A stretch of 64,000 nt of DNA from Bigelowiella natans CCMP2755 (taxonomy: Eukaryota > Protista > Cercozoa). The stretch's first letter is position 1. Each line of letters begins with the position of its first letter. Under the pieces are notes generated by a model. That model ran no database searches. It was given only the letters and a program-made list of their open reading frames with translations, and had not been told where the DNA came from. A program made the position numbers and the translations under genes. The stretch lies in the NCBI GenBank assembly GCA_000320545.1, contig ADNK01000550.1, positions 165,520-229,519 on the forward strand, given 5' to 3'. Below are positions 1,873 through 31,592 of this stretch, in pieces.

Positions 1873-4800
1873 ATGAAATTCCAAAGATCGACACGCGGGG
1901 GATTCAATGTTTGGGATCTGATCGCGAGAATTGATGCCAAAATCAAATCGGCAACAGAAAAGAAAACAGCAGAGGCCAAGCTGTCAGTGCATGTCCGATG
2001 CAGCCCCACAGAGCTGCGACTTGCGTTCTCTTCGAAATTTCATGAACACAAATCCGTGACTCAGACGGTGTCTAAGAGTGTGCACGAACACCTTGCTAAC
2101 CTGCTTGCCGTCTTGCTTCACGATGAGGAACGTGCCCGTGATGGGAACCCGAGCACCCCAGTGGCCTTCAATCTAGACATCCATCCCATCGAACCGATCG
2201 AGAAGGTGTTGACAACTCTCGAAACTCCTAGGATCGCGGATGTCAAAACCGATGTCAGCTCCATACCCGGTCCGGCGCATCTCTGGATGCTCGCTGCTCG
2301 GTACATGTTTTCACACGGCAACGCCAATCGCGTGCAGTTCGCTCGCCCGGACGAATTCACAGTTTTGAAGCTGCCAGAAACAAAAGGTTTAGGGAATGAC
2401 ATCACTAAATTTAGAAGCACCCAGTTTGCGTTGATGCGGAAGATTTTCATCCCCGTGACAATACGGTTCAAGCCAAACATGCCGCAGCATCACTTTCTCA
2501 TCGTGAAACCCGAGATGTGCAACACGTTTCTACAGGAATTGTACACCCACGAAAACACCCCGGCAGGTCCCGTTGCGCTGATGGGGTTCGCCAGAATGCA
2601 CATGCGGATTCTTAACGTCCGGCGTAATCAAATTCTGCGTTTCATCCGCACGCGCCTGACTGCGCAGTTGCAGCGGTCGGTGTACAGAATTGCTTCGGCA
2701 ACCTTGATACAAAAATCGATCAGCCTAGCGAACGACAAGGCCACAGTCGCGGACATCGCCATGCAGCAAATCGTTGAGTCCAAAGCAAGTTACAAGCGGT
2801 GGGCTTCGGTCTCGGTGCGGAAGTTCAACAACTTCTCGGTTCTCAACATCGACTTGGTCAACTTGAACCGCCATTCGCTGGCAAATCACTGGGGGTTTAT
2901 CACCCCTCTAGAGGGCGGCACCGACAACAGCGAGGGCAGCGAGCGGCACATATTGGTTGCAACGGAAACGGACAGCGGTCTGTGCGCGGCGCGATGGGTC
3001 AACAGCAAGACCTCGCGAGAGGAGGTGCTTCCTGCGATGCGCTCGATCTTTGTCGAACTGGCGATCCTGCACGGTTGTGTGTACGGAAGGGACATCAAGA
3101 CGATCCAGTCCGATGAGGGATCGGAGTTTGCGGACATCGTGAGGGAGCTCACGAAGATCAAATACACCCGAAGCAAGGAGAGCAAGAACGTCCAGGTCGA
3201 GACGGTCAACAAGCTCCTGTGCCTTCACATGTTCCGCAAATTCGTGCTGACGGACACTGGGCGGTCGAACGTCGAATTGCACGAGCAGCACTGCAACATG
3301 GTGCTTCAGAACGCCGTGGACGCGATCAACAACACCAACCGCGCTGGGCTCGGGGTCATGATCGACTCGACAAAGACGCGGAACAAGAGCATGGACGCCA
3401 AAGTCCCCGACAGCAACAGAAGACAGCGACACCTTCGCCTGCTGAAGAAACTCAACAGCGGCCACGCAAACAAAACCGAGCTGGTGTCCGGTGTGCAGGG
3501 GAGTGTCGACCTTTCCCTGAGCCCGCGCGCGCTCTGTCTGCACCACATCAACGCAAAGGCCGTCGTGGAATCCGTCTTGCACCCCGAGTTGCGGTCCTAC
3601 GACGAATCGCTGTTGCAAATGGTGCGGATGTCCCGGCCGGTCCGGGCCCGGGTGAGCGTGGAACAGAGCAGTGATGCAAGGCTTTTGCTTCTCAACGACG
3701 CGATGCAGCACCCTCGCGTGTACTCCCGGCTCGAGAGGGTAATGAAGAAAGCCAACCTGCGTGACTCCATGGATCACAGGAAAAAGTTTCTGAAGAAAGT
3801 GGGCAAGATGAACAACCAGAAGCGCGGGGCACTGGAGAGACACCGCAAGGCGACCGCGTTTGACAGGCGAATCAGCACCGAGGCCAGTGAAAACCTCATC
3901 GCACGGATGCTCAAGGACTCGCTTTGGGACAAGATGCAACGACACGTCGTGCGCTGGGGTTACACCAAGGAGAGCCGGCAGCAGATGCACCTCCCGGTGT
4001 TCTCTCTGGTGCGCGTGCTGGTCGACGACACCAAGGCCTCCGGATCCATCATGGAGAACCGAAAGGCTGCACCGACAACCCCAATCGTTGAGGAAGACCT
4101 GGATTGCCTCAAAGAGGAGCGCAAGGGAGCGGGGCGAGGCAGGGGAAACGCACGCGGGGGAAGAAGGGGGCGTGGCAGGCAGCAGCAGCAGCAAAACAAA
4201 CAGATGGAGGGCGTCTACGCCGAGTCGCACTGGTCGCTGAGCGAGAAAAACTCCGATGTCCTACAGACGGACACCCGGAAAGGCGCCGTGAACAACATCC
4301 TGGCACACAACCGAAAACGCTTCTACAAAGGGTACCGCGCGCATTGGTCCTACGACGTTTATGTCGTTCTGTGCGTGCTCCCGACCCTGCAGTCGCACAC
4401 GAACACGTCGAAGGAGGATGCCTCGAAAATCGTTCGTTTGAGGTGTAGGTACATGGTGTGCCCGCTCTGGGTGCTTGGGCGACGCTCAAAAACATTCAGG
4501 GACGCGGTCAGACGGAACCCGACCAGGCTCGACCTGGTGATGCGAGATCTGCGCAGGAACGCCAAACGGTTTTTGACCGAGGAAGGGAACTGGGCGGACG
4601 CTATCGGGGTAGCCAAGGATTTGTGGACTCGCAACCAAAGCCAGTATTACCTGATGCGGAACACCGAGAAGACCAGAGAGGTCGATGCCAAGACGGACCG
4701 GCAGCAGTACAAATCGCCATACCCGTGGAAGATCCGACCGGAATTGCAGCGCATCAACTGGAACACTAACCAGGCTTCGTTGATGTACCCATTCCTCATG

Positions 4801-5823
4801 CTCAGCAACAACGAGACCACGCGTCGGATGCACATGTGTGCCCCCATCTACGTGCACCCCTGGCAGTACGAGGAATCCAGTCTCACACAGGACAAAGCGA
4901 AAGATCTCACGTGCCCCAGAGTGTGGCGGAGAACGCTCTTGCCTGTTTATGGCATTCGACAACGCAACTGGGACGATCCTATCCGCAGCAGCAGCATCAT
5001 CAACGTCAACGACAAAAGTTACCGAGACGCGGCCAAACTCACCTCAGAGCCCCTGGCTTCGGTCGGGGTGGTCTCCGCGACACCGCTCGACCGGAAGGAC
5101 AACCAGACGGTCAGGTACAACAGCGAACGAATGACCAAGACGGACGTACAGACCGGTCTCTGCAGGCTCTGCGAGAAGAAGAACGGGATATTCTCGAGCA
5201 TCTACACCTCCATGAGTGAAATGGAAAACTTAGATAACAAAATTTTGAGCCCAGTTACGAGGAGGGTGAAGGCACAGAGCTATGTGATGTGCATGCTCTT
5301 TGTGTTTGCCGTGCGCTGTGGGTACGATTTGAAGAGTGCGCGAAACAAATGCAAACACACCAATGCTTTCAAACCTGAAAATCTCACCGCAACCGAGAAA
5401 CTCATGTACGACACCATTTTCCTCAAAACCGTGCCGAAATTAGACGGGCTTGTTTTCGAAAATAATAACGAAGCATACGACGCTCTGAACGAACAAGTCG
5501 AAAAGCTTACAAAGAAGAAGTTCGGAAGCACCAAGAACAAATCTCTTTTCGTGCGGCTCTGGATGCGGTGGTGCATGCGAAGCATGCTTTTGTTCATGGA
5601 GACCCCGAGAGGCACACAACCGTACCTGGACGCAATGCTAAAGGTGAAGAAAGCTGTTGACAACAAGTTTAGCAGAGAGATTTTCGACACCCTCCCGTCC
5701 AAGAATGAGTATTACATCACCAGCCAAGCCACAAGTGACGAGAAAGATGCGAGGGCAAAGCAGGTGCTGTATCGACTTTTCACCCGAATGAACGAGATCG
5801 GAAAAAATTTTCCTTCCCGCTGA
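1873..5823 (+). CDS. Very large retroviral-type (rve, DDE) integrase, Polinton/virophage-like, 1316 aa
   Basis: Core motifs VLNIDLVNL (D327, nt 2851), HILVATETDSGLCAARWVNSK, TIQSDEGSEF (D414, nt 3112), QVETVNKLL (E443, nt 3199) and NAVDAINNT. Downstream are FSLVRVL and FYKGYRAHWSYDVYVV (nt 4321), the latter matching the KGY..W..E.F.V motif of Polinton-type integrases. Confidence 0.8.
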   Translation: MKFQRSTRGGFNVWDLIARIDAKIKSATEKKTAEAKLSVHVRCSPTELRLAFSSKFHEHKSVTQTVSKSVHEHLANLLAVLLHDEERARDGNPSTPVAFNLDIHPIEPIEKVLTTLETPRIADVKTDVSSIPGPAHLWMLAARYMFSHGNANRVQFARPDEFTVLKLPETKGLGNDITKFRSTQFALMRKIFIPVTIRFKPNMPQHHFLIVKPEMCNTFLQELYTHENTPAGPVALMGFARMHMRILNVRRNQILRFIRTRLTAQLQRSVYRIASATLIQKSISLANDKATVADIAMQQIVESKASYKRWASVSVRKFNNFSVLNIDLVNLNRHSLANHWGFITPLEGGTDNSEGSERHILVATETDSGLCAARWVNSKTSREEVLPAMRSIFVELAILHGCVYGRDIKTIQSDEGSEFADIVRELTKIKYTRSKESKNVQVETVNKLLCLHMFRKFVLTDTGRSNVELHEQHCNMVLQNAVDAINNTNRAGLGVMIDSTKTRNKSMDAKVPDSNRRQRHLRLLKKLNSGHANKTELVSGVQGSVDLSLSPRALCLHHINAKAVVESVLHPELRSYDESLLQMVRMSRPVRARVSVEQSSDARLLLLNDAMQHPRVYSRLERVMKKANLRDSMDHRKKFLKKVGKMNNQKRGALERHRKATAFDRRISTEASENLIARMLKDSLWDKMQRHVVRWGYTKESRQQMHLPVFSLVRVLVDDTKASGSIMENRKAAPTTPIVEEDLDCLKEERKGAGRGRGNARGGRRGRGRQQQQQNKQMEGVYAESHWSLSEKNSDVLQTDTRKGAVNNILAHNRKRFYKGYRAHWSYDVYVVLCVLPTLQSHTNTSKEDASKIVRLRCRYMVCPLWVLGRRSKTFRDAVRRNPTRLDLVMRDLRRNAKRFLTEEGNWADAIGVAKDLWTRNQSQYYLMRNTEKTREVDAKTDRQQYKSPYPWKIRPELQRINWNTNQASLMYPFLMLSNNETTRRMHMCAPIYVHPWQYEESSLTQDKAKDLTCPRVWRRTLLPVYGIRQRNWDDPIRSSSIINVNDKSYRDAAKLTSEPLASVGVVSATPLDRKDNQTVRYNSERMTKTDVQTGLCRLCEKKNGIFSSIYTSMSEMENLDNKILSPVTRRVKAQSYVMCMLFVFAVRCGYDLKSARNKCKHTNAFKPENLTATEKLMYDTIFLKTVPKLDGLVFENNNEAYDALNEQVEKLTKKKFGSTKNKSLFVRLWMRWCMRSMLLFMETPRGTQPYLDAMLKVKKAVDNKFSREIFDTLPSKNEYYITSQATSDEKDARAKQVLYRLFTRMNEIGKNFPSR

Positions 5824-9991: not shown

Positions 9992-10412
9992 TGGCGGGAA
10001 ACTCTACCATTTCTCTGGAATCGAGCGGGAGGGTTCGAGAACAATGCGAGTTCGCGTGGAATGGCAGGGGAATTTTTGCGGGTTTGGGTGTTCGGGTGTG
10101 CAAAAAGACCACAATTGCTTCCTGGCCCACGTGCTTTGCTGCTCCGTGGCATTTTGCGTGCCCATCACTCGTAAATTTCTCGTGACAAGGTACCCTCTTT
10201 TTGTTTTTATTTTTAAAAATATCTTTTCGGTAGCAAGAATTTGGTGAAAATTGCCTAAATGTCAAAAAACAAAGAGAGTCCCGCCAAACACCCAAACGAA
10301 CAAAATCACCCAAAACACACCATGAACTTTTCTCATGCAAAGGAGCACTTTGCTTTCACTTTCCACCTGTCCGCGCTCCTACCTTTCGGCCCCAGTGTTG
10401 CAATCTGAGCAC

Positions 10413-11211
10413 ATGCCCTCCCCCATCAAGAAGCGCCGAATCGATGCTGTCCGTGAAAAGGATCGAGACGACGATACCAAGGACTCTGTGGATGATCTTA
10501 ATCGGACCATTTCGGACCTCAACAGAACAATCATGGACAAAGTCTTTGATTTGGAGGACAAAAACAAGAAAATAAAGTCAATGCAGATCATCATCGACAA
10601 TCTAAAAGACTACGTGAGGCTGTTGGAGAACGTGAAGAAGCCAGGGGAAGCTGTCAAGAGCACCAGCCCGTGCAATTCGAACAGTGAAGAGTCCGATTGC
10701 AGTGGTGAGATAGACCCTGATGATTTCGAGCAAAATGACATTTCGCACGTGGACTTTGAGGACGATGACTCTGAGGAAGAAAGCAAAGGCAACAACAGCG
10801 TCTCTGAGAGTTTGGCGAACATTGTCCAAAACTACAACTATGCAATGGACCCTGAAGATATCCGTGGTTTCGAGCACCTGAAACATTACCGGCCATTGGA
10901 TGTGTTGCAAGATTTCCTGGACTTTGATTCCAAAATCGAGAAGTTGATGGAAACGAACGATTTAGAGAAGAAGGAAAAAATGGAGAAACTTGAGAGCATC
11001 CTCAAATTTAATGAGCAGATTTTGACAGTGATTCATGATGACCTTTTGGGTTTTGGGTTTAACCACAATTGTGTTCATTGGAGTGAGGTGTATCTGCGCC
11101 TCACAGGGTCAGTCAGTCCATGCTTGGAAGACGTCTCTGATTCTTTCAATGTGCTCTTGCTCAAAGTGAACATCATCACATTCAAATGCAAGAAACTGGC
11201 TGGTCTCCTCA
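10413..11211 (+). pseudogene. 5' part of the D5-like helicase gene interrupted by LTR element copy 1
   Basis: The ORF runs into the LTR at 11212. Removing 11212..16329 (element plus one TSD copy, CTCA) joins ...KLAGLL to KKTERVDLY... in frame: 799+725=1524 nt, a 507-aa ORF. Confidence 0.8.
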
Positions 11212-11537
11212 TGTTGCGCGTAAGGTGTTCACAGGCCGAGGCGCTACGTGCACAAGTAGGCAGGGGGGGGGAAAGGCACGTTTGCTTCCTTTTGAAGAGT
11301 TGTGTTTATTTTTATTAAAGATTATATTTTTATTAAATCGTGCACTGCGTAATCATTCGCGAAGCTTTCGCGAATGCCGCCGCACGTGGGGCAGCACACT
11401 TCCGGTGTGCTGCCATGAGTCCCGCCGGAACCCACGTGCCTATGCTGTATTAATATCTACGTTATCTATATTCTATATCCGCGACAACCCCTTTGTTGTC
11501 GCACGTGACTTGTGCCCGCGTAGTGGTACGCGCTACA
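11212..11537 (-). repeat. 3' LTR of copy 1 (326 bp)
   Basis: TG...CA termini; identical by eye to the five other full LTRs. Confidence 0.95.
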
Positions 11538-11588
11538 CCTCCCCCAAGTCACGTTGCTCCTTCCTTCCTTCCTTATTCCCTTAGACCT

Positions 11589-14500
11589 TCATCGCTTTCG
11601 GAACTTCACCAACCACCAGGTAATAGATTCCTCTCTAACCTTATCTCCTTTGTCGCTTACCCAGAACTCACCTTCGTCCTTAGGTTCGTGTCCATACCAG
11701 CCCTCTGCATCAAGGTCCCCCAGGACCTTATACCAGTGCTCAAAGGGTAAGTCGGGAACAGCTAGGTAGAGTAGCTGATATTTTCCGTCCTTTATTTTCA
11801 TAGCTACCCTCTCCATATTTCGTAATCCAGGGTAGCCTAGATAGACAATCTTCATGCGCCAATCGTCGTTCACCCTGACCTTATTGTTTCCATATTCCAC
11901 ATCGAACTTAGGTCGGGGTCCTAAACAAGGCATTGCTCGCTCCCACACAGTAGGGTTTACTTTAACATCCTCTAGGAGCTTCTCACCGATATCATAATTC
12001 TTTAGGTGACTGATGTGGCGCAAGGTGACCCTGTTCCCATCATAGATGTAGTACTGCTTCCTCCCCTTCCTCTCGGTAACCTTTGCAACGCCACCCCAGA
12101 AGGGGTCTTGTTTATTTCTCGATCTCAGATTTACCTTGGCCCTAACATACTGTCCTTCCTTTAGAACTCGGCCATCGTACGGGACCTTCTCGTCTTCGCT
12201 CTCGGTATCGTCGTCGTTGTCGTCGCCTTCTTCCCTCTCCTTATCCTTGATACCTCCCCCAGACGTGAAGGTGTCGTTTACTAACCCTTGTATCTTGTCT
12301 GGTGTGGTGCTATTTATCCTGCTTAGGTTGGCCAAGGTGCGGTGGAGTCGCTCTACCTTGGAGTTGGACTGGGCATAGTATACAGGTGAGGCATCAATAT
12401 TAGGGTGTGGTAGCTGTAGAAGAGAGGTCTCATTATCCACATGTAACTTCTTTGGTATCTTGTTTATGCTAACTTCATCAGGGATAGCCTGGAGCTCAGA
12501 CTCCCAGGTACGGTAGCAGTTAGTAAGCCTCTGCTTATATAAGCCTTTGTTCTTCTTAGCAACGTTGACCTTGATAATCTTTTTAACCCAGCACTTTCCA
12601 GTGGCCACATCAACGAAGGTAAGGTAGTGATAGCCATCGTACTTATAAACATCAATTTGCACGATATCTAAGAAGTTCCTTGCTTTGATTTTCTTAGATG
12701 CACGGCTCTTGCTGGACTCCTTGGTGGCGACGCCTGCCGCCTTCAAGCTGGAGCACCTGCAGCCACGCAGGTATGTCCTTATCTCTTTTAGCTTGTAGGG
12801 CCAGTAGTAATGGTAGAGTAGAGCAGTGATATGGTTTTCTCCTACGTGTGCAGGTCCATGGGCGGTAAAGAGAAGGGCTCCCCTGGTCCGCCGTGGCACG
12901 TAGGTACGCCTAACATTATTAGTGTATACATATATCCTATCACTAAGTACCTCATGCTTGTGTTTGTATTTATCCAGGTGTTCTTGAAGGTGCTGGAGCT
13001 CCTCTGGCTCAGGCAGGAAGTCGCCGTCCTCGAAGGTAATCGCGTTAACCATAGGGGTGACCTGGGTAGGGACTTTCTTTTCGAACAGCCTGCTGAAATA
13101 GTCAGCAAGCTGCTTGTCTCCTGGTGCGTAGACCACTGTCCTCTTGTCCCTAAACTCTTCCGTGTCCGCCCTCATAGCTGCATACTCATCGTTAGGCGCT
13201 TCGAGCTTGCGGTCGATGCCTAGGAGGGGCTTGTGGTCAGTCATTAAGGTGAAGCTGGGCACCGACAGCAGGTAGTATCTTAGTTTCCTCTGCGCCTCAG
13301 TCATGGCTTTATACTCTCCTTTTGTAGGGCTGTACTTGGCCTCAGCTGCTGTGCAGGCCCTGCCCCACACCCGTATGATCTGCTGGTCTTGGGTAAGTAC
13401 AGCAGCCATACCTAGCTTAGACCAGTCTGTCCATAGGGTAGCTGGTCTAGTAGTGTCTAGCTTAGCATTCAATAGGGTGTTGCTGCATAACTTTATTAGG
13501 TTATCGAAGTGGGCATCAAGGCCAGCCTTGGCCCACACCTTAGCGAAGCTGAGGCCTACAGAGTTCTCCTTCCGGTAAGCAGTAGTAAAAGCAGCTGCAG
13601 TCCTAGCGTAGGTAGGGGAGAACCTACGTAGTATCCAAGCTGCAGTCTGCAAGAATGACTTTAACTCCTTTGCATTCTTAGGTTTAGGGGCTTGCTGTAG
13701 TGCTGCTACTTTCTCGGGGTTTGGGGTGATGCGGCCTTGCTCCAGGTAATATCCACACCACTTGATTCTTGTAGCTAGGAATGTACACTTCTGCAGTCTA
13801 ATAGTAAAACCGAAGTGTGCAAACCTAATAAATATATTTTCCAGGAGGAAGATCTGAGCGACGACTGTGTTGGTACATATTATGTCATCATCCACATACA
13901 CAAACACAAACACCCACAACACAGACGCCATCCCATCATGTGTGTATGCCCTGTAGTTCTGACTACTGAACGCATCCCCTGATATGCTTAGGCCGTAAGG
14001 GAATACGACGAAGTGCCACTTCCTGTGCCTGCTGGAGAACGCGGTAATGGGGCGGGAGGTTTTGTGGATGGGTGTCTGCATGTATGATTCATTTTTATCT
14101 AGGGAAGAGTAGTATTTGTATCCTATGACGTGTTCAATAACGTCATCTATCCTTGGTGTAGGTGTCTGGATCCTCTTTATTACTCGGTTGTGGCGGATGA
14201 AGTTGTGCGCCAGGCGGAAGAAAGGGTAAGTAGGTTTCTTAGCTAGCACATGTCTCACGTTCCATGGTGAGTTGCTTGGCTCTATCTTCCCTTCCTTTGC
14301 CCATTCATTGATCTGCCACTCTATCTTTTCCCAGTCCGCTTCCGGTCGCCTATGTTCTGGGTCATTGATGATGCACTCTTCGTATCCCTTCTTTAGCTCG
14401 ATCTTTACTGGGGTAAGCTTGCTGGAGGGCTTCGTCGTCGGCTTGGTGATGTCAGAGTACTTCTCGTTTAATATTTTATTAATGTACTTTTTGCCTTTGT

Positions 14501-15557
14501 CGATATCCCAATCATCAGCTGGGGGGGTCTTGTCCAGTAGCTCCGTTATCTGTCGGATGGTCTTGCCGGGGTTCTTCTTCCGTAGCTCGGTAGGTGTAGG
14601 TAGCTTGTTGTCCGCTAGGTCCATAAACTCTAACGCATTAACGCTTGACTCAGAGGTCCACTCGTCAAGCCGTATCATGTTCTGGCTGATGGTCCTGCCT
14701 GACTTCTTTGGCAACTTAGCAAAGTATATCTTGTGATTGTAGAATGATATGATCCCCCCTAATTTTTCTAGGGCATCCTGTCCGAGGAGTAGTTCCATGG
14801 ATAAAGTCATGGCTACTCGGGTCTTGATTTGGGTCTCCGCGTCGCTGCCAGGTATCTGTAGCTTTAGCATTAGCTCACCGACGGTCTTCATGGAAGAGCT
14901 TCCGTCTGCTTGAGCATATTTACGTTCTTTCTTAGTCACTTGATCCAATAGTCCTAACCTTCTTACTGTGCTTAGGCTTATGAAGGACTTCGGCATGCTG
15001 CCACTATCCCAAAGGGCAGGTAGTTTCTTGTAGTCTCCGTAGCTGTCTTTAACTTTAACCTTGGTCATAGCAACTTTGATAGTCCTGTTAGCGTCTTCGT
15101 CATTAATGTTGCATACTCCTAAGTTCTTTATGTCGTCTAGGGTCATGGGCTTGTCTTGGTCCTGCGTTGCTGGTACTGCTGTCTTCGTCGGCGCCTGCTT
15201 AAGGTGATCTAATATTCCGTTTATCTGCTGCTGTATAGCATTGATACTGTTCTGCTTTTTGTTCTTATATTTATTGTTCTTCCCGTTGTTGCTGCCTTGC
15301 CATTTGCTGTTGTTATATCCTTGTCCTCTGCCTTTCTTTCTCTTTAACTTCTCGTAGTGTTCGTTGAGCTGCCTGATCGTCATCCTGGGTCGTCCTTCTT
15401 TCCTGTCTCTGCAGTCTTTAGCGGTGTGTTTCCCTTTACGTGAGCAGTATCCGCAACGTCGGTTACCTTCCCTGTCCTTGTACCAGTCTCGCTGCGGCTT
15501 AATAGCGTTAATGTTTCCTATGCCAGGTACCTTAGGGCTGGTAAACTTGGAAGCCAA
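11589..15557 (-). CDS. Gag C-terminus/Pol polyprotein (zinc knuckle, aspartic protease, RT, RNase H, integrase, C-terminal extra domain)
   Basis: CGYCSRKGKHTAKDC knuckle; LWDSGS protease; FPYGLS and YVDDD RT motifs; WTDWS and TDHKPL RNase H; H..H/YYWP/CRC zinc finger with QIDV, HVDNE and KVERLH integrase motifs. The first three residues (MAS) derive from the rearranged PBS. Confidence 0.93.
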   Translation of the reverse strand: MASKFTSPKVPGIGNINAIKPQRDWYKDREGNRRCGYCSRKGKHTAKDCRDRKEGRPRMTIRQLNEHYEKLKRKKGRGQGYNNSKWQGSNNGKNNKYKNKKQNSINAIQQQINGILDHLKQAPTKTAVPATQDQDKPMTLDDIKNLGVCNINDEDANRTIKVAMTKVKVKDSYGDYKKLPALWDSGSMPKSFISLSTVRRLGLLDQVTKKERKYAQADGSSSMKTVGELMLKLQIPGSDAETQIKTRVAMTLSMELLLGQDALEKLGGIISFYNHKIYFAKLPKKSGRTISQNMIRLDEWTSESSVNALEFMDLADNKLPTPTELRKKNPGKTIRQITELLDKTPPADDWDIDKGKKYINKILNEKYSDITKPTTKPSSKLTPVKIELKKGYEECIINDPEHRRPEADWEKIEWQINEWAKEGKIEPSNSPWNVRHVLAKKPTYPFFRLAHNFIRHNRVIKRIQTPTPRIDDVIEHVIGYKYYSSLDKNESYMQTPIHKTSRPITAFSSRHRKWHFVVFPYGLSISGDAFSSQNYRAYTHDGMASVLWVFVFVYVDDDIICTNTVVAQIFLLENIFIRFAHFGFTIRLQKCTFLATRIKWCGYYLEQGRITPNPEKVAALQQAPKPKNAKELKSFLQTAAWILRRFSPTYARTAAAFTTAYRKENSVGLSFAKVWAKAGLDAHFDNLIKLCSNTLLNAKLDTTRPATLWTDWSKLGMAAVLTQDQQIIRVWGRACTAAEAKYSPTKGEYKAMTEAQRKLRYYLLSVPSFTLMTDHKPLLGIDRKLEAPNDEYAAMRADTEEFRDKRTVVYAPGDKQLADYFSRLFEKKVPTQVTPMVNAITFEDGDFLPEPEELQHLQEHLDKYKHKHEVLSDRIYVYTNNVRRTYVPRRTRGALLFTAHGPAHVGENHITALLYHYYWPYKLKEIRTYLRGCRCSSLKAAGVATKESSKSRASKKIKARNFLDIVQIDVYKYDGYHYLTFVDVATGKCWVKKIIKVNVAKKNKGLYKQRLTNCYRTWESELQAIPDEVSINKIPKKLHVDNETSLLQLPHPNIDASPVYYAQSNSKVERLHRTLANLSRINSTTPDKIQGLVNDTFTSGGGIKDKEREEGDDNDDDTESEDEKVPYDGRVLKEGQYVRAKVNLRSRNKQDPFWGGVAKVTERKGRKQYYIYDGNRVTLRHISHLKNYDIGEKLLEDVKVNPTVWERAMPCLGPRPKFDVEYGNNKVRVNDDWRMKIVYLGYPGLRNMERVAMKIKDGKYQLLYLAVPDLPFEHWYKVLGDLDAEGWYGHEPKDEGEFWVSDKGDKVREESITWWLVKFRKR

Positions 15558-15561
15558 AGGT

Positions 15562-15798
15562 TGTTGCGCGTAAGGTGTTCACAGGCCGAGGCGCTACGTG
15601 CACAAGTAGGCAGGGGGGGGGAAAGGCACGTTTGCTTCCTTTTGAAGAGTTGTGTTTATTTTTATTAAAGATTATATTTTTATTAAATCGTGCACTGCGT
15701 AATCATTCGCGAAGCTTTCGCGAATGCCGCCGCACGTGGGGCAGCACACTTCCGGTGTGCTGCCATGAGTCCCGCCGGAACCCACGTGCCTATGCTGT
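15562..15798 (-). repeat. Internal partial LTR (3' ~237 bp of the LTR in element orientation) inside copy 1
   Basis: Matches the LTR from TGTTGCGCG to TATGCTGT, then switches to gag sequence. Confidence 0.9.
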
Positions 15799-15999
15799 TG
15801 CATCTGCTTTCTTAATCCCGGGTGCTGGTCCCGGCGGTGCCTGTGGAGGTGTTCCTCCTCCTTCCTTAGCGTCCGTATCGCCCTTCCTTTCCTGTTTCTG
15901 CTCGTGCCCTTGCACGGCCTGCGAGCCAAAGTCCTGCTGTTCTTCTAGCTGCTGTGACATTGTTAGTCAAATCGTTTCCCGTGTGTGGAAGCCAAAGGT

Positions 16000-16325
16000 T
16001 GTTGCGCGTAAGGTGTTCACAGGCCGAGGCGCTACGTGCACAAGTAGGCAGGGGGGGGGAAAGGCACGTTTGCTTCCTTTTGAAGAGTTGTGTTTATTTT
16101 TATTAAAGATTATATTTTTATTAAATCGTGCACTGCGTAATCATTCGCGAAGCTTTCGCGAATGCCGCCGCACGTGGGGCAGCACACTTCCGGTGTGCTG
16201 CCATGAGTCCCGCCGGAACCCACGTGCCTATGCTGTATTAATATCTACGTTATCTATATTCTATATCCGCGACAACCCCTTTGTTGTCGCACGTGACTTG
16301 TGCCCGCGTAGTGGTACGCGCTACA
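16000..16325 (-). repeat. 5' LTR of copy 1 (326 bp)
   Basis: Followed in element orientation by ACCTT-TGGCTTCCACACACGGG (putative PBS) and the gag ATG. Confidence 0.95.
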
Positions 16326-16329
16326 CTCA

Positions 16330-17054
16330 AGAAAACCGAAAGAGTGGATTTGTATCAAAGCATATCGTACAAAATCCACGCGTACGTCAAACTCCTTGAA
16401 ATGTGTTACATCCACACGCACAGAATCAACATCATGTATCTAGAGGACACTGGTTTGGCAAAAATCATGGAAACAGGGGTCATGTCAGGCCACCCAGTGT
16501 GCGAGTTTCAAGAAAGAGCATGCAACCTCAACATAGAAACCACACACGTGGCAACGCCGAATGCGTCTGACGTGGTTGCGTACACTGTCAAACTCATGTC
16601 GATGAAAGGCTTGGTCCACGACAACGAGCACGTGTTAAAAGTCGACAATGGAATCGCTGAGTATTACACTGGAAAAAAGAAAAACGGATACAACAAAACG
16701 CTGAGGCAGGTTGAGGATGGCAAGGTCACGCTCACCGAATTCGTTTACAATGAGGTGATGTCGAGAATGGGGGGCATGAACAGCAGAGTGAACCCAGAGG
16801 ATGTTGTCAAAAAGTACCTGACGAAATTGAGGAATGCCGGGATCACTCTGAAACGCAATTTGACTTCCTTTTCGACCAAGAATCTCACATTTGACTGTCT
16901 GACTTTGTCTTTGCGGATGCGAAGTCATAGGGGGTATTTCGATCGACTACAGAAAGGAACAGTCGGTAATGCAAAATGCCACAAAAAACAAAAAACAAAA
17001 AACAGCATGCTGATCTTCATGTCCCCTTTCTTTGCAATCAGGAACGCCGTATGA
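16330..17054 (+). pseudogene. Middle part of the interrupted helicase gene (D5_N-like region)
   Basis: In frame with 10413..11211 after element removal; SFSTKNLTFDCLTLSLR loosely resembles the L.F.NG..DL.T..FR motif of D5_N domains. Confidence 0.65.
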
Positions 17055-19134
17055 CACCAGTGTGAGGAGTGAGAAAGAGCTTTGGAAGAATTTTTGGGAC
17101 CTCGACATCTTTGTGCCGAACGGCGAGCACACAAAGGTGTTGTATGATGACAACTTTTTCATCAAGATCAATCGTGACCAGTTGGGAAACAAGGCTAAGC
17201 GTGGCACGTGGTTTCAAAACGAGTATTTCCCAGACCCCACTGATGTCAAGTATGAGGACAGTTATTTGCACAATGAAGAGGCCTCGCGAAGCACCTACAA
17301 CCCGTCATTGACCATGTACCACATAATCGCAAAGACAGTGTACGCCGGCCTTGTGAAAACAAAGTACATGGAAAATGTTGGCGTGTACTTTTGGAGAGTG
17401 GGAGACGCAGGCACCGGGAAATCAACTTATCTGCAAATGATGAAACACATCTTGAGTGGAACTGGACCGGAACAAGTCATGAGCATGAGCTCCCATGACG
17501 GTGAAACCGCTTCGAACTTCAGTTTTGCCAGAATAGCCAAACACAACGGCGGTTACTACAGGGCGGTGCACTGCGAGGAGGCACAAAACATAAAATTGAA
17601 CGTTCGGCAAATCGTGTTTGCATCGATGTCAAACGCACCAATCACCACGGCTGGGAAGCACCAGCAGGCCACGGAGCAACGGTTAAACATTGCGTGGGAA
17701 TTTAACAGCAACGCGACGGTTGCGACCGTGATGAACCAGGGCTCCATTGCTGCAAATTGCCGCCGCGTGCAACTCTTCGAGCACAACGCCAAGAACATGC
17801 AAAAGAAAGACGAATCTAACATGACAACGTGGATAAACAACAAGGTGCTTCACAGTCTGATGGCAATTGCTATCTCCTACACCAGCTGCATGTTTGTCAT
17901 GGAAGGCAAGAATTTCTTGAAGGACACTTTGCAGCAGATGAGCGAGTCAGAAAAATTCAAACATTTGAGCAAGAAAACCAAAATGTTCGCGTTTGTTGAA
18001 TCGGGATATTTCGTCAAAAAAGAACACGGTCTTGTCCCATACAGCGTGTTCAAAAAAGCTTATGACCATTTCAAATACCCGCCGGTAAAAGGGAATGTGT
18101 ACCAATTGTACAACGAGAAACAGGACAGTGGCAAGGTTCTAGAGAAGATATGGGGCATAAAGGTTCTGAACGTCTTGAATGTCCCCAAAGAATGCAAAGG
18201 CGTACAAAAATCCAGGGGAAGGTCTTTGAAAGGGGTTTTCCTTCCGGTGTTCAACGACTGTGCTTACAAGGAACCAAGTGAGTTTTACCGAAGTAACAGA
18301 CCGGTGTACAACTCCACAGGTTCCGCTGAAACCAAACTTCGGGGTTCAGACACCGACATTACAGACAGGTACATCATTGGCGTCGAGGCTTCACCAGATG
18401 CCTTGAAGAATTATCATGGATTAAACTTCACCAATTACAACAAAAAATTGTCGCTGTGTGATGCAATGGTCCAAAAAAACGAAAGTGAGGTGACATATTC
18501 ATTGGTTGAATTGCAGCAGTTAAACGATGATGCAGCTTTTGACAACATCAATGGAGACGTGTTGGATGAAACGGAAAAGGATCGCTTGAGAACAGTTCTT
18601 CATTTGATCAATGCTTCCACTGCGATGAAGGAAAAAAGACAAAAAATGGAGGAAAAAATCCAAACAATGGAGCAAAAGGTCCCCACAAAATTTCACCAGC
18701 GCAAATTCTGTGGATGGCCGTTGTGGGTGCTCCGAAAAAAAGGCCTTTTGGACAAGATGCTCACGGAAACCGAAGAAGGATCCAAAAAGTTCAAACCAGT
18801 GACCAGGAACGTGGGTCGTGGACTTCAGCACCAGGAAAAGGTTGTGTTGGACTGGCTGGAAACCTACATGAACATCGATTCAAGCAATGGCAAAGCGCGT
18901 TTCAGTTTCAACAAGGACAAGGCAACAACTGCAAAGTTCAACGACATCATCTCACACATCAACAACATCACATGTGTCTTGGTGTCCCGATTCCACGATC
19001 GTTTGCACTATGACAAGAGAATTTGTGACAACGACGAAAACAAAGCACATTTTGAGGAACTCTTAGACAAGACTAGCAAGTATTATCAATTGATTGAAAA
19101 GACGTGCTCGAAACGCAACATGGAAAGACAGTGA
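17032..19134 (+). CDS. D5-like superfamily 3 helicase domain protein (probably the 3' part of a larger gene)
   Basis: Walker A GDAGTGKST (nt 17401-17427), Walker B AVHCEEA and motif C WEFNSN. The ORF starts at a TTG and overlaps the preceding ORF by 23 nt in another frame. Confidence 0.85.
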   Translation: MQSGTPYDTSVRSEKELWKNFWDLDIFVPNGEHTKVLYDDNFFIKINRDQLGNKAKRGTWFQNEYFPDPTDVKYEDSYLHNEEASRSTYNPSLTMYHIIAKTVYAGLVKTKYMENVGVYFWRVGDAGTGKSTYLQMMKHILSGTGPEQVMSMSSHDGETASNFSFARIAKHNGGYYRAVHCEEAQNIKLNVRQIVFASMSNAPITTAGKHQQATEQRLNIAWEFNSNATVATVMNQGSIAANCRRVQLFEHNAKNMQKKDESNMTTWINNKVLHSLMAIAISYTSCMFVMEGKNFLKDTLQQMSESEKFKHLSKKTKMFAFVESGYFVKKEHGLVPYSVFKKAYDHFKYPPVKGNVYQLYNEKQDSGKVLEKIWGIKVLNVLNVPKECKGVQKSRGRSLKGVFLPVFNDCAYKEPSEFYRSNRPVYNSTGSAETKLRGSDTDITDRYIIGVEASPDALKNYHGLNFTNYNKKLSLCDAMVQKNESEVTYSLVELQQLNDDAAFDNINGDVLDETEKDRLRTVLHLINASTAMKEKRQKMEEKIQTMEQKVPTKFHQRKFCGWPLWVLRKKGLLDKMLTETEEGSKKFKPVTRNVGRGLQHQEKVVLDWLETYMNIDSSNGKARFSFNKDKATTAKFNDIISHINNITCVLVSRFHDRLHYDKRICDNDENKAHFEELLDKTSKYYQLIEKTCSKRNMERQ

Positions 19135-19432: not shown

Positions 19433-20260
19433 CTAGTGTTCTTTGACTACTTCCATGCCCATTTGCAAAAACGCAAATCTGAATTTTTGCATCATTGCCT
19501 GGTGGCAATCTGTCTCGTTCTTCAATTTCTTCACAAGATGTTCCAAATGATCGTTCAGAAACATGGAATCCATTTTCATGATGTTGTTCAGTTTCTCATA
19601 CTCTGCATGAATGACTCGGAACTCTTTTGCCGCCCGATCGCGGAGATAGAGAACATCTTTTGCAAGTTCTTTGACATCATCTTCGTTGTGATAACCAAAA
19701 TGAACGAACAATTCTTGGCATCTTTCTAGTGAGATTTCTTGGAAACCACAAATGCTGTTTTTCAACGATTTGAGATGGAATTCTGTCGTGAAACCTCCCC
19801 TGCCGTCGTCAAGGCTCCGGATGATGTCGTAGACGTTTTCGTGGAGCGTGCCCATGTGATTGCCGTACGTCCATTTGAGAGGCATGAGCCATCTGCAAGG
19901 GTTTTCCGTGGTCCAGAAGAATTTTGCAACTGTGGACATGTCTCTGATTAGCCGACAGAGAATCCGGTGTGGGGCTTGAAAATTTCCAGGAGTTTTGAAG
20001 TCCGTCCGCGAGAATCTGGGAATGGTTTTTTGCCGGAACAATGCATCCCGTCTCTTCGCTCTTTCAACAGTTTTCCAATTATCGGGCGTTTTGTTCTGGT
20101 CCTTGAAGGCTTCGAAAATTTCTTCAAAGTCAGGGACGTCAGTTCTTTTTGATTCCAATAGAGTGTCTCTGTTCTGTCTCTGGATTTTCCGAAGTTTCTC
20201 GCGTCGTCGCTTCTTTTCTGGACTCTTTTTTCGATTTTTGACTGAACCTTTGATTGGCAT
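19433..20260 (-). CDS. Hypothetical protein (~275 aa from ATG 20260), basic N-terminus, coiled-coil C-terminus
   Basis: Part of ORF 19433..20395; the ATG of MPIKGSVKNRKK lies 47 nt downstream of repeat A. Confidence 0.7.
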   Translation of the reverse strand: MPIKGSVKNRKKSPEKKRRREKLRKIQRQNRDTLLESKRTDVPDFEEIFEAFKDQNKTPDNWKTVERAKRRDALFRQKTIPRFSRTDFKTPGNFQAPHRILCRLIRDMSTVAKFFWTTENPCRWLMPLKWTYGNHMGTLHENVYDIIRSLDDGRGGFTTEFHLKSLKNSICGFQEISLERCQELFVHFGYHNEDDVKELAKDVLYLRDRAAKEFRVIHAEYEKLNNIMKMDSMFLNDHLEHLVKKLKNETDCHQAMMQKFRFAFLQMGMEVVKEH

Positions 20261-20370: not shown

Positions 20371-20510
20371 ATGGCCATGTGGCTTTTTGGGCCATGCCAC
20401 GTGACCCTCACAATTTGAAATTTTCAATTTTGGAAGCCACGTGGCCCTCTCGTCAGAACGAAGTACAAAGGAAAAAAAACAAAGACAAAGGAGGTGGTTT
20501 GTTCGTTTTG

Positions 20511-20654
20511 CGCCATGCACGGGGCAGCGACGCGCCATTGATGCCAAGCCATTCAAAACGACGCCAAGGCGATTCCGCGCAATCCGAAGCCGTGCCGCGC
20601 TGCGCGGCGCCGCGCCGCGCCGCGCTGCCTGCTGAGTGGCACATGTTGGCAATG
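20511..20654. repeat. Intergenic repeat B, copy 2
   Basis: Direct similarity to 19236-19357, with an expanded GCGCC tract. Confidence 0.85.
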
Positions 20655-20684
20655 CACACCAAGTTTGTGGCAAGAAAAGCTTGT

Positions 20685-20999
20685 TCAATTTTTAGATTTG
20701 GGCAGCACACAGCGCTTCTCATTGTCGAGTGCAAACATGACAGGGCCTTTCGAGTCGAAGGAAACGAAATGTCCTCCTCTCTCCATTTTCTTGTAGGTTT
20801 TGTTCAGGTCGTCTTGGGTGACTGTTGGAAGTGTGCAAAACCCGAAGCGGTCACTCCAAGTGTCCAAGAAGAGACCAGTCAACGATTTCTTTTTTTTGTC
20901 AGAAAGGGAGTAGAAAGGATCGAAGGTGGTGTTGGGTGGCAGACGAAAACCTCCAAAATTTTCACACCAATTGTTGAAAATTTCCGCATCGTGTCTCAT
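20685..20999 (-). CDS. Hypothetical protein, 104 aa
   Basis: Its ATG overlaps the TGA of the H3-tail ORF (ATGA). Confidence 0.5.
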   Translation of the reverse strand: MRHDAEIFNNWCENFGGFRLPPNTTFDPFYSLSDKKKKSLTGLFLDTWSDRFGFCTLPTVTQDDLNKTYKKMERGGHFVSFDSKGPVMFALDNEKRCVLPKSKN

Positions 21000-21211
21000 C
21001 CAATGTCTCGTTCATCATTTAGGAGTTTTGCCTCCAAAAGAAAAACGTTCAATTCAATGAAGGGTTTGCCAGTGATCTCGCTGAGAGGGCAAAAGCTTGG
21101 TGACACTTGATTGTATTTCTTGTTCTTTCCAGTGCGCCAACCCCGTGACGTTGGTCGCCGACCAACTAGTCCTCCAGTGGACTTGCGTGGGGTTTGTTTG
21201 GTGCGTGCCAT
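20996..21211 (-). CDS. Histone H3 N-terminal tail fused to unrelated sequence (71 aa)
   Basis: MARTKQTPRKSTGG followed by non-histone sequence; 38 of the first 42 nt are identical to the H3 gene at 21990; repeat A lies 33 nt upstream. Confidence 0.75.
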   Translation of the reverse strand: MARTKQTPRKSTGGLVGRRPTSRGWRTGKNKKYNQVSPSFCPLSEITGKPFIELNVFLLEAKLLNDERDIG

Positions 21212-21243
21212 TGTTTCTTTTTGATTGTTTAGGGTTTGAGGTG

Positions 21244-21307
21244 ATTTGGATTCTGATGAGAATGAGGAAGTGAGAAAGTGAGGATCGAGGCTCGGAGATT
21301 GCACGGG
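21244..21307 (-). promoter_or_regulatory. Repeat A copy 2
   Basis: Identical over 64 bp to the reverse complement of 23280-23343; three CACGTG boxes upstream (21311-21405). Confidence 0.7.
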
Positions 21308-21423
21308 GTAGCCACGTGGCTTTTTCAACCAAGCCACGTGATGTTGCTGGTTCGGCCATGTGACCCTCTTGCTTTGAATTGTTCCTTTTTTAGAAAGCCA
21401 CGTGGCTTTCTTGTCACGACGAA

Positions 21424-21510
21424 ATGCACGAGGCAGCGACGCGCCATTTGTGCAAAGCCGCTTCGAAACGGCGCCAAGGCGGGTTTTGGCGCGGCAACAC
21501 GTTGGCAATG
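21424..21510. repeat. Intergenic repeat B, copy 3 (shorter, more diverged)
   Basis: GCACGAGGCAGCGACGCGCCATT...CGCCAAGGCG...TTGGCAATG. Confidence 0.8.
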
Positions 21511-21573
21511 GACAGAGGGCTCACGGACAAAGTTTTGCGGTGATGAAAAATCAAACTTGGGTGCATGCAAGCA

Positions 21574-21990
21574 TCAGGCTCTCTCCCCGCGAATGCGGCG
21601 AGCAAGCTGAATGTCTTTGACCATGATTGTCACTCTTTTGGCGTGGATGGCGCAAAGATTGGTGTCCTCGAACAACGACACCAAGTAGGCCTCTGAGGCC
21701 TCCTGCAACGCCAAGATGGCGGCGCTCTGAAAACGGAGTCCTTCTTTGAAATCCTCGGCGATTTCCCTGCAAAGGCGCTGAAACGGCAGTTTGCGGATGA
21801 GGAGGTCGGTGGATTTCTGGTAGCGGCGGATCTGACGCAGGGCGACGGTTCCAGGGCGGTACCGATGAGGCTTCTTCACTCCTCCAGTGGCAGGTGCTGA
21901 TTTTCTGACTTTGGACGCTTTGGTGGCGAGCTGTTTGCGAGGAGCCTTTCCTCCAGTGGTTTTGCGTGCGGTCTGTTTGGTGCGTGCCAT
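21574..21990 (-). CDS. H3: Histone H3, divergent, intronless, 138 aa
   Basis: [73 protein letters not shown]...[33 protein letters not shown]. True ATG at 21990; the longer ORF in the track is upstream read-through. Confidence 0.97.
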
Positions 21991-22386
21991 GGTGAGCCAA
22001 GCAATGGTCGAGGGGTTTGAGTTGTGAGGACTTGAGCTGATGAGGGAGTGAGAGGCCGGGCCTTGGAATCCAAGTGAACGAGCCACGTGGCTTTTGACCA
22101 AAATCCACATGGCTTTGTTGGACGGGGTCACGTGGCATTTGTTCGAAGACCACGTGACCACAAGATCCGTTTTTCCCTTTTTTGGTCGTGTGACCTTGTT
22201 CAACAGGCCACGTGACTACCCCGCCCTGCTTCTGTTTTGACACCTGCAACCACGTGACCCGAACCCTGGTGAGCCACGTGGTCCACCCCCTTCAACTCCG
22301 AGGCCTGGACCCTCACTTCCTCATCTGCTCAAGTCCTCACAACTCAAACACCCGACAAACTTTGAACACCTTCGCCTCTGAACCTG
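21991..22386. promoter_or_regulatory. Putative bidirectional promoter with six CACGTG boxes between H3 and the acidic-protein gene
   Basis: CACGTG near 22084, 22130, 22151, 22209, 22251 and 22275; both arms carry a CTCACT(T/C)CCTCATC.GCTCAAGTCCTCACAACTCAAAC leader related to repeat A. Confidence 0.65.
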
Positions 22387-22962
22387 ATGCCACGTCCAAA
22401 ACCGAATAACCCAACCAAGAACCGCACCGTCAAAGATGACGCTCCGAAGCGCCAGTCATCACGCAACAGGAAGGCGCCACCCAAGTTCGACCCCTCCGCC
22501 GAAGAGACCACGCATGACCCTGCAATCAAACGTCAGAAGAGTGAAGGCGACGAAAAGAAGAGCCGTGACCCCCCCTCCCAAGTCGACGTTGATGATGCCG
22601 TGGAAACAGTCGCCGAGAACTCCCCAATGACCAAAGCTGACGTCAAGGAAAATTCCACCATCAATGGGGGCGATGATGATGAGAAAGTCGAAGAGAAGGA
22701 TGAAGAAGAGCGTGAAGAAGAGATGGATGATGAAGAGCATCATGATGAGGAGGAAGACGCCGAAGAGAAAGAGAAAAAGCGGCTTGCCAAGATCGCTCGT
22801 CAGCAGGCAAGGTTCGAGAAAATGTGGCATGTCGATGGCACGAAATTGCTTGAAGGAGGAAAACGCGTCAAAGGAGTCCGTGTGATGCCGGGCGGCAAAC
22901 TTGAAAACGTCTCCTGCTGGGGGCAAGAAACCACTGTGGTGAATTTTCACAAACACATTTGA
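22387..22962 (+). CDS. Hypothetical protein, 191 aa, with a basic N-terminus and a long Asp/Glu tract
   Basis: ATG ORF divergent from H3; RQSSRNRKAPPKFDP motif; DDDEKVEEKDEEEREEEMDDEEHHDEEEDAEE tract. Confidence 0.75.
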   Translation: MPRPKPNNPTKNRTVKDDAPKRQSSRNRKAPPKFDPSAEETTHDPAIKRQKSEGDEKKSRDPPSQVDVDDAVETVAENSPMTKADVKENSTINGGDDDEKVEEKDEEEREEEMDDEEHHDEEEDAEEKEKKRLAKIARQQARFEKMWHVDGTKLLEGGKRVKGVRVMPGGKLENVSCWGQETTVVNFHKHI

Positions 22963-23013
22963 ACGTTGAAATGTCAGTTTTTTTCATCAAGCTTTTCTGA
23001 TCTCAAACTTGAT

Positions 23014-23373: not shown

Positions 23374-24468
23374 ATGCGAACCAAGACCCGGCACACAAAA
23401 TCAAAAACAATGCCAACCAAGACAAAATCAAATGGGCCCAGGATGAGATGCCAGACGAGTGAGACGGAGAAGAAAAATGTCACAGCTCGCATTCCACCAA
23501 CCATAAAAAACCAACTCAAAAATTTGGAGAAAGCAGCCAAGCACAGAGAATATTGCCCATGCGAGGGAAATTTCGAGGAATGTTGCGACAACCCAGCCAA
23601 CTACCCAGTGCAACGTCACGGGGTTGAGCGGAAATCAGTCAAGGACTTTGGCGGCAAAAAGGAGCTACAAAAAGTGGAGCGACGAAAAGCGATTTTGAAA
23701 AACCAAAAAAATGCCAGGACCACCGTGAAGGATTTCAACAGGATGATCAAATCACTGGAGAATTTGTTGGAAAAATTGAAGCAGTTCAGTGAAACAGTGG
23801 AAAAGGAGTACCTCCATTTCCGTGACCAACACAAAACGCCATGCGCGGACAAGAAAAAGTGCCATGCAGAGTGGGAGTTGTTCAAAAATGACCTGGAATT
23901 TGTCTCAACGAGGCTTTGGAACTTCAGTTACGTTCGTTTTCCACTCCACAAGGCCATGAAAAGGGTCGTGCACAAGATGAACAGGAGCATCAACCAAATA
24001 TCTTCTGATTCATTCAAAAGAAAGGTGATTCGAGAACTCAATGACGTCAAGGGATTCACCAAGATTTTCAGAAAAGGAGGCGACTTGCCAGAAACTCTAA
24101 ACATGTTGAAAGAGCACAAGGATGACATGAAGGCATTGTCAAAAGATTATGATTTGAAACCAGCCTCCATTGATCGCCACGAGAGTTTTTTGGGCATTTT
24201 TGAGGAACTTTGCAACATCGTGTTTGAGGTGTCAGGGGACTTGAGTGACACATTCAATGACATGACTTCAAAGCAGATTTTGAAAATTTCAGATGTCGTC
24301 AAAAACATTTATCTGGAATTGAACAAACCCCACAAATGGAATGATGGGGACGGACCTGATGGCGAGTCAGACTCACGTGATTCAGATGATTCTGGTTCTG
24401 AATTTGAGCGTTTTTATGACACTGATGATGATGACAATGATGAACGTTGTGATGATGTTAAACAATGA
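23374..24468 (+). CDS. Hypothetical helical protein (~364 aa from ATG 23374) with an acidic C-terminus
   Basis: Part of ORF 22966..24468; the upstream part of that ORF is read-through of the repeats; contains CPCEGNFEECC. Confidence 0.75.
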   Translation: MRTKTRHTKSKTMPTKTKSNGPRMRCQTSETEKKNVTARIPPTIKNQLKNLEKAAKHREYCPCEGNFEECCDNPANYPVQRHGVERKSVKDFGGKKELQKVERRKAILKNQKNARTTVKDFNRMIKSLENLLEKLKQFSETVEKEYLHFRDQHKTPCADKKKCHAEWELFKNDLEFVSTRLWNFSYVRFPLHKAMKRVVHKMNRSINQISSDSFKRKVIRELNDVKGFTKIFRKGGDLPETLNMLKEHKDDMKALSKDYDLKPASIDRHESFLGIFEELCNIVFEVSGDLSDTFNDMTSKQILKISDVVKNIYLELNKPHKWNDGDGPDGESDSRDSDDSGSEFERFYDTDDDDNDERCDDVKQ

Positions 24469-24783
24469 TGAAACATCTTTGAATTCTTACAAATCGAAAA
24501 CTTGATCATGTGAAAACTGTGCACATGTCTAAGAACATGCAAAAACATTGAAGCTTGCAATTTGCGATGTGGCAATGACTGAAAATGCATCGATCTCATG
24601 CAAAGATGTTGAATGGGGCGCAGAAGCATTCAATTGATTTCATCCGCGTGTGACTGCCAGTCGTTGCATGCATTTCAAATCGCACAATGATGCAACCGCT
24701 TGGAACATGGAGAAGACATGTTTGGTGCATGTGAGGAAACTGAGAACCTTTGCTTTGACTCAAATTTTCGAGCCATACTTATA

Positions 24784-24842
24784 ATAGACACAGCAATACA
24801 CTATATATAATATATATATTGTGTATTGCATGTCTATCATTG
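24784..24842. repeat. AT-centred hairpin, inverted relative of 25140-25198
   Basis: ATAGACACAGCAATACAC...GTGTATTGCATGTCTATCATTG. Confidence 0.7.
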
Positions 24843-25139
24843 TTGCAAACTCAAGATGCCAATGATGATGAACATGATGGATTGATAATTGCACGTGTGT
24901 GCACAATGTCAAGCCAAGCCGAAAGGAACACGCCACTTTTGCGTTCGCTCAAATAGCCATTTTCAGCAGCAATTTTGAAATGACCTGCTGCACCAGTATG
25001 CAAGCAAGTCTAGAAGTCTGATGCGATGACCCGCATATTCAAATTTAACACATTGCATTGATGCAAACGCACACATAGACATGAGCAAGACTGACGTTCA
25101 GAAAGTTTGTACGCATCGTAGTGTGAGCATGGGTGAGCT

Positions 25140-25198
25140 TGCAATGATAGACATGCAATACACTACATATATATTGTATTGCTGTGTCTATCATTGCA
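25140..25198. repeat. 59-bp hairpin with a perfect 14-bp terminal inverted repeat
   Basis: TGCAATGATAGACA ... TGTCTATCATTGCA, with an inner GCAATACA/TGTATTGC stem. Confidence 0.75.
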
Positions 25199-25485
25199 CG
25201 CCCTCGTCGGCCCAATGTTGGCATGCACTAGTGCATGCTGCCATCATGATGCTCGGCTGCCAACGCAACTAGGCAAGAGTGAGTACAAAGTGAACACATA
25301 TGAGCCATTTACGCGAAACATCCCCTAGATCATGCGCCAGCTGAGATCCCAATTTGTACAGATCGAATATGTCACCGCCTTCATCATGTTAGGGCTTCAT
25401 TCCACTTTTGCAGTCATGAAAACCAGATGTTGTTGAGAGACGGAATCATGATCGAGTGTAATGAAAACATTTTTTTCCAATGTAG

Positions 25486-31581: not shown

Positions 31582-31592
31582 TTTGACTAACA

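Follow-up and report, generated by a model that had tools for sequence, protein, structure and literature searches.

The nuclear genome of the cultured alga Bigelowiella natans contains a virus-like island that carries an intact histone H3 variant gene and, adjoining it, an open reading frame (ORF) that begins with the H3 tail but is non-histone from there on. Viral H3s that occur singly and have an altered K27 region are already known; what is unusual here is the element that carries the gene, a host that is in culture and the tail fusion next to it. The reading to which we incline, by a modest degree, is that an integrating virus-like element captured the H3 gene from a eukaryote and that, once the element is active, the protein assembles with the host's H4, H2A and H2B into looser nucleosomes. 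The function of lone viral H3s is hard to test because they are known mostly from uncultured viruses. By being present in a cultured alga's nuclear genome beside canonical host H3s, this variant makes expression, incorporation and methylation directly testable. The coordinates in Table 1 and below refer to the 64,000-nucleotide stretch that was analysed (the window).

Table 1. Features of the H3 gene, its neighbours and the surrounding island
Feature	Position	Strand	Basis
Histone H3 variant, 138 codons, intact, intronless	21574..21990	-	Translation; PF00125 E 7e-46
S-K-V codons in place of A25; net +2 residues before R26-K27	21907..21915	-	Alignment
Upstream cassette of H3 gene	22007..22092	-	80% inverted twin at 22272-22356, before divergent ORF 22387
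Downstream cassette common to other island genes	21424..21481	.	86% to 19242-19298 and 20515-20571
Upstream cassette of tail gene	21209..21427	-	82.5% like that of ORF 23374, up to ATG
ORF starting with H3 residues 1-13 (A7P), then non-histone sequence	20996..21211	-	ORF translation
Orphan ORF, 104 codons	20685..20999	-	Single open frame with tail ORF in run X2
1316-aa ORF with rve-type integrase-like domain (~residues 310-460)	1873..5823	+	Language-model look-alikes
Long ORF, first piece, split in frame by LTR element	10335..11211	+	Sequence
Young LTR retrotransposon: protease, RT, RNase H, integrase zinc domain	11212..16325	-	Identical LTRs, 4-bp target duplication
Remainder of split long ORF	16326..19134	+	Sequence
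D5/SF3-type helicase ORF, in another frame open from 17014	17314-19134	+	Score 0.95, DUF5906/Pox_D5 look-alikes; weak sub-threshold Pfam DUF5906
Orphan ORF with shared cassette	19433..20260	-	Cassette alignment
Orphan acidic ORF, divergent from H3 gene	22387..22962	+	ORF scan
Orphan ORF with shared cassette	23374..24468	+	Relatives in B. natans gene models
Pair of short palindromic repeats near apparent right island end	24781..25201	.	Sequence

The H3 variant has both an H3 tail and a complete histone fold, and aligns end to end with solved H3 chains (H3.2) apart from a single insertion of two residues. All of the changes listed in the initial annotation are present in the translation (T10, Q50, C71, E76, E80-G81, V121 and the insertion before K27), as are the lysines described as retained (K4, K9, K14, K18, K23, K27 and K36); K79 is likewise kept. 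One label needs amending: E80-G81 had been given as TD80-81EG, but relative to host-type H3 the change at position 80 is N80E and not T80E. The variant also differs from animal H3 at D59, A87/I89/L90 and S102. D59, I89, L90 and S102 are common to chlorarachniophyte H3 and so are not specific to the variant. Twelve residue differences and the insertion separate it from the chlorarachniophyte H3 P0100. A further in-frame ATG, at 22110 within the upstream cassette that is common to island genes, is unlikely to be the start codon.

Is this a centromeric H3? CenH3 proteins have a divergent tail, a longer loop 1 and have lost Q68, F84 and T118. The variant keeps a canonical tail, a canonical loop length and all three residues, and a CenH3 identity was rejected.

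At the insertion, the hexamer CCAAAG occurs twice, 9 nt apart, and yields the extra lysine; a short local duplication at the DNA level is the likely origin. The resulting spacing, K23-A-x-K-x-R-K-S-A-P, matched none of the viral contigs searched, and the 11 metagenome stretches in which it was found include no histones. None of 42 distinct viral H3s has a K23-R26 spacer longer than usual. In the sequence collections compared, the spacing is thus rare.

A contig from DNA run X2 spans 21278-22420 with no differing letters and no gaps, and this letter-for-letter identity leads to the rejection of a sequencing or assembly error as the source of the variant. Between 0.87 and 0.95 of the sampled words of 19400-24500 are contained in 20 DNA runs from 15 studies; these runs share one organism label and may therefore represent one strain, and one of them may be the source of the window itself. 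As a separate observation, a further X2 record (record 3) aligned on 21573-21737 is a sister H3-like piece with 4-nt and 8-nt insertions. Its silent letters are as in the H3 variant and not as in host H3, and it is probably a decayed second copy of the element.

Do ordinary host H3 genes carry the same substitutions? The initial annotation had proposed this comparison, taking their presence in host paralogues outside viral islands as evidence against a special variant. Host paralogues were read from reads and contigs that aligned at 82% likeness to the window. S10 is present in 3/3 X21 reads and also in X24 and X2 contigs, and P121 in 23/23 reads. The loose ends, translated by hand, give K-A-A-R-K-S-A-P without the insertion and V-R-E-I-A-Q-D-F-K-N. 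The host H3s therefore carry S10, AARKS, V71, Q76, N80 and P121, with E50 and D81 unreadable. Because the host reads and contigs are canonical at these sites, S10T, the insertion, V71C, Q76E, the change at position 80 and P121V are specific to the variant.

From the start of the window to about 24.5 kb, the ORFs are long, intronless and mostly orphans. The viral-island setting proposed for the H3 gene holds, as the gene lies among ORFs with rve-like and D5/SF3-like look-alikes. The integrase call rests on a score of 0.95, with 25/30 Atlas matches assigned to PF00665 and a D-D-E spacing read by eye; the ORF at 1873-5823 has no Pfam match and no significant PDB sequence match, and its protein falls in the same 90% cluster as a B. 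natans gene model. For the helicase-like ORF, a PDB sequence search likewise returned no significant match. The LTR retrotransposon sits in the ORF that precedes the helicase and splits it in frame; beyond this comes a frameshift. If the pieces belong to one replication gene, this split means that the element copy in the window is probably dormant or dead and no longer autonomous. Relatives of the ORF at 23374 are found in three other B. natans gene models. The two related palindromes near the right end (24781-24842 and 25137-25201) are 60-65 nt long. Beyond about 25 kb, towards the right, the sequence looks like that of the host, with an ATG17-like ORF. It also holds an intron-split gene recognised by eye, which we take to be FKBP-like.

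What kind of element is this? The H3 is a lone histone, with no other histones among the 15 ORFs scanned from the part of the element that lies inside the window. No major capsid protein (MCP), penton or packaging ATPase was found among the window ORFs scanned, the left end lying outside the window; nor was a protein-primed DNA polymerase B, a virophage-type protease or terminal repeats identified within the window, where the element is incomplete. An rve integrase, as used by Polintons, by Polinton-like viruses (PLVs) and by virophages, is indicated by look-alikes without an HMM match. Among NCLDV core genes the window has the D5-like helicase alone, a family common to other elements. NCBIfam and PHROGs gave no credible match for 11 island ORFs. 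The helicase, the integrase portion, the 104-aa ORF, the cassette and the tail start with A7P had no relatives in the viral contigs searched. Single-sequence fold predictions reached pLDDT 43 and 30, the latter for ORF 6157-7362, and both were unusable. Since the capsid module and the ends were not found in the window, the element is not filed here as a relative of virophages or Polintons.

The H3 gene shares its regulatory surroundings with its neighbours. Five genes between 19433 and 24468, H3 included, have shared upstream cassettes, and related downstream cassettes recur. All seven CCACGTGG sites in the window (7/7) fall in 20437-23275, where 0.65 would be expected. Such a cassette would make H3 and its neighbours one regulon. 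Across 19234-23376, CACGTG-rich upstream cassettes and GC-rich downstream cassettes are common to unrelated ORFs, and the family looks like gene shuffling between reusable regulatory modules.

H3 relatives are encoded at 60 viral loci, of which 51 gave 42 distinct full-length proteins and 9 had no full H3 by the pattern used. ARKS is kept in just 7/42 of these proteins, so viral H3s typically have an altered K27 region; the K4-K9-S/T10 start is found in 26/42. Q50, C71, E76 and V121 each occur in one viral H3 among the 42. Identity of the variant to cellular H3 is 91-92%, and to the 14 viral H3s aligned it does not exceed 85%. The protein search took the best 120 of 4354 matches, under a ranking that favours long or duplicated H3 models, and its 88 distinct proteins are a non-random sample. 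A tree of 62 rows (the 42 viral proteins, 19 of 119 other matches and the variant), with bootstrap values not settled, places the variant among cellular H3s (94/83). It does not join chlorarachniophyte H3, and the tree therefore does not name the donor.

In the histone fold, lone viral H3s reportedly share 73-87% identity with host H3, and they are interpreted as recently captured genes whose products join nucleosomes of the host type (PMC9145170; PMC11222145, accessible text). Those of Dishui Lake phycodnavirus 1, sylvanvirus and the Manila clam xenomavirus are likewise lone and host-like and keep most modification sites (PMC9145170). The chaperone site is hybrid in both, AAIL in the variant and TAIL or SAIL in the singlet viral H3s, and S/T31 is absent from the variant as it is from them (same source). 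The variant is closer to cellular H3, and its indel lies before R26, whereas those of the viral H3s compared lie after K27 or before K23. The singlet genes are carried by free large viruses or a xenomavirus and the present gene by an integrated element. Bracovirus CvBV-H4 is another single histone of host origin, found in an endogenous viral setting, and its tail too varies by indels; it is, however, an H4 in a wasp host with demonstrated nucleosome entry, while the H3 variant is known from its sequence (PMC9145170, accessible text).

How might the variant act? H3 E50 forms a contact with R39 of H4, and the substitutions E50A/D/K/Q reportedly promote dimer exchange, the neutral E50A change having no dominant growth effect in yeast (PMC11788928, accessible text). 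Further core changes lie in helix 1, loop 1 and loop 2 of the variant. For V71C, Q76E, N80E/D81G and P121V we infer, and only infer, a loosening effect. On the capture reading, an integrating virus-like element would have taken up a eukaryotic H3 gene whose A87-I89 chaperone site may allow replication-independent loading; E50Q acting with the other core changes would loosen the particle, and the tail changes would adjust K27 methylation without eliminating it. By acting as a free decoy for K4 and K9 readers and writers, the tail fusion may contribute to the same outcome. A looser nucleosome appears to be a more likely effect than escape from K27 methylation.

Such an escape had been suggested by the initial annotation, in which the variant, when deposited on viral chromatin, may escape or alter K9- and K27-linked repression. 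In its strongest form, the insertion is the selected feature, with lysine at -3 blocking host PRC2, S10T altering K9 signalling and the element's chromatin escaping silencing; we regard this as unlikely. S10T itself is confirmed, but altered K9 signalling is not well supported. For G9a, ARKT peptides are as good a methylation substrate as ARKS, and once methylated they bind HP1 (PMC2175347), and Aurora B phosphorylates the threonine beside the methyl-lysine in G9a, where ARKT keeps the methyl/phospho switch (PMC8541646; accessible text of both). The K9 switch is thus probably intact in the variant, with the proviso that all of the enzyme data cited for K9 and K27 are mammalian.

For K27, human PRC2 on peptide arrays prefers [A/C/V/P]24-[A/V/L]25-[R/K]26-K27-[F/Y/H]28-[A/V/C/T/S]29 (PMC9255955). 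The variant reads K-V-R-K-S-A, and its V-R-K fits the human-enzyme motif [AVL]25-[RK]26-K27, including R26, a key PRC2 contact (PMC9255955; PMC4853476). Among the changed positions, -3 (position 24) alone departs from the preference, having lysine where the array favours [ACVP]. H3 residues 22-30 are ordered in the EZH2 site (PMC4853476), and no part of the viral H3 tails is more altered than the K27 region when the ARKS count is set against that for K4-K9-S/T10; both points speak for an effect on K27. So does a western blot that reportedly detected H3K27me3 in SAR species and included a B. natans lane (10.1101/2019.12.26.888800, accessible text). Against it, V25, R26, K27, S28 and A29 remain, and because the insertion is N-terminal to R26, K27 and K36 keep their distance to the core. 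The array list also lacks the native S28, so that absence from it does not equal being unmethylated. Overall, the proposed escape finds little support, though weaker K27 methylation through lysine at position 24 is possible.

Could the gene instead be a passenger, captured and now decaying under relaxed selection without special function? None of 119 aligned reads of RNA run X21 reaches at least 95% identity to the variant, with about 6% of the run read, a strain that may lack the island, conserved reads possibly filtered and an aligned stretch without a host control gene; the variant is thus unseen in RNA while its paralogues are transcribed. Inserted giant-virus genes in B. natans are reported to be mostly silent (PMC5294986, accessible text). 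This silence would suit a passenger, as would the broken helicase gene, the insertions in the sister H3 piece and the dozen replacements plus an indel, relative to P0100, in a normally very conserved protein. However, the gene has kept its frame, its start and stop and every main tail lysine, and the element's own cassettes flank it. Over codons 110-134, variant and expressed host H3 differ by 8 silent and 2 replacement letters, each in at least 87% of X21 reads. With 17.7 silent and 57.3 replacement sites, the binomial p against neutrality is 3e-4, for a count that covers 25 codons among the table rows listed, mixes both branches and favours reads of at least 82% identity. The excess of silent changes argues for past selection on the variant protein, both branches contributing, and makes a passenger doubtful. 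It is very improbable that this is an ordinary host H3 variant, stage-specific or domesticated, which is in the island by chance: its closeness to cellular rather than viral H3 and its presence in 20/20 listed DNA holders would fit, but cassettes common to orphan island genes lie on both sides, X21 gives no RNA support and the DNA holders may be a single strain.

The tail ORF adjoins the H3 variant on its downstream side and places an H3 N-terminus on a protein without a histone fold. It keeps K4, K9, S10 and T11, and 38/42 of its first nucleotides are identical to the H3 variant. In the window it starts at 21211 and stops after 71 codons. In run X2, the only DNA run aligned, one extra base at 21001 gives a single frame of 175 codons (20685-21211). 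The fusion is a candidate for an H3-tail decoy, as predicted from its translation. A search with the 104-aa ORF among proteins of similar length returned itself alone, and no alignment was obtained with the viral tail-start protein of L013.

Similar arrangements are found in viruses. Among the 60 H3 loci is L040, where 4450-4959 encodes ankyrin repeats headed by an H3 tail and a full H3 gene follows directly. Proteins starting MARTKQ or MARTKE lie 3-4 kb from H3 in six related loci, where about 0.01 would be expected by chance; a conserved viral orphan of 228-244 aa with either start is found in L013 (9037-9771), L021, L022, L024, L025 and L027. The exact H3 start occurs in 38 viral loci, comprising 35 histones, two complete non-histone fusions (L088 and L101) and one gene cut by the contig end. 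Judged by these predicted proteins, the tail-fusion arrangement recurs in free viral contigs. The L101 protein (H3-start match at 3001-3030, minus strand) is a giant-virus protein of 311 aa with H3 residues 1-10 and no histone fold. Its body has, by eye, what we take to be four AT-hook-like repeats after these residues. On the contig of L088, L059 (4525-4962) carries H3 residues 1-21 on about 120 unrelated residues. Within the island, the ORF start at 23374-23410 reads MRTKTRHTKSK (MQTKTQHTKSK in its relative P0128), loosely like an eroded H3 tip, and is preceded by the cassette that also precedes the tail gene. Runs X22 and X24, which are RNA only by guess, include a contig of this kind.

Influenza NS1 and SARS-CoV-2 ORF8 likewise place H3 tail sequence on a non-histone protein (PMC11738798). 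Unlike these mimics as described in the accessible text, the tail ORF has 13 residues at a true N-terminus, copied at the DNA level from an H3 gene, and adjoins a full H3 variant under a related cassette (same source). The pairing of H3 and an H3-tail fusion would suggest that counter-silencing by such means is a strategy that recurs. A more ambitious proposal, which we hold as speculative and rather improbable, is that the carrier is an element of the Polinton/virophage class and not a giant virus, equipped with a co-regulated anti-silencing kit of loose, poorly K27-methylated H3 nucleosomes and a 175-residue K4/K9 decoy, the pairing having arisen independently in free algal viruses. If the carrier does belong to that class, a wider range of mobile DNA has its own histone.

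B. natans holds virophages, PLVs and giant-virus inserts (PMC8547959; PMC5499653). Mavirus-like EMALEs, Polintons, PLVs and Tlr1 combine an rve integrase with a primase/helicase, orphans and retrotransposon insertions, as does the island (PMC8547959; PMC5499653). In contrast, described B. natans PLVs have SF1 helicases and the island a D5/SF3-like one, and the accessible descriptions of these elements mention no histone, whereas the island has H3 (same sources). A literature search that covered journals outside subscription turned up no description of this gene, nor of a Polinton-like element that carries a histone. The 2015 account of B. natans viral inserts by Blanc et al. reportedly covers such loci and may already list the island.

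Two further features of the window were noted. Three near-identical copies of one LTR retrotransposon lie within 50 kb (11212-16325, ~31225-36397 and ~56266-61989), with long stretches that are 100% alike and small frameshifts between them, as in a recent burst. Tandem repeats of 66-69 nt occupy 39425-40231 (minus strand), and the opposite strand would encode an acidic repeat protein.
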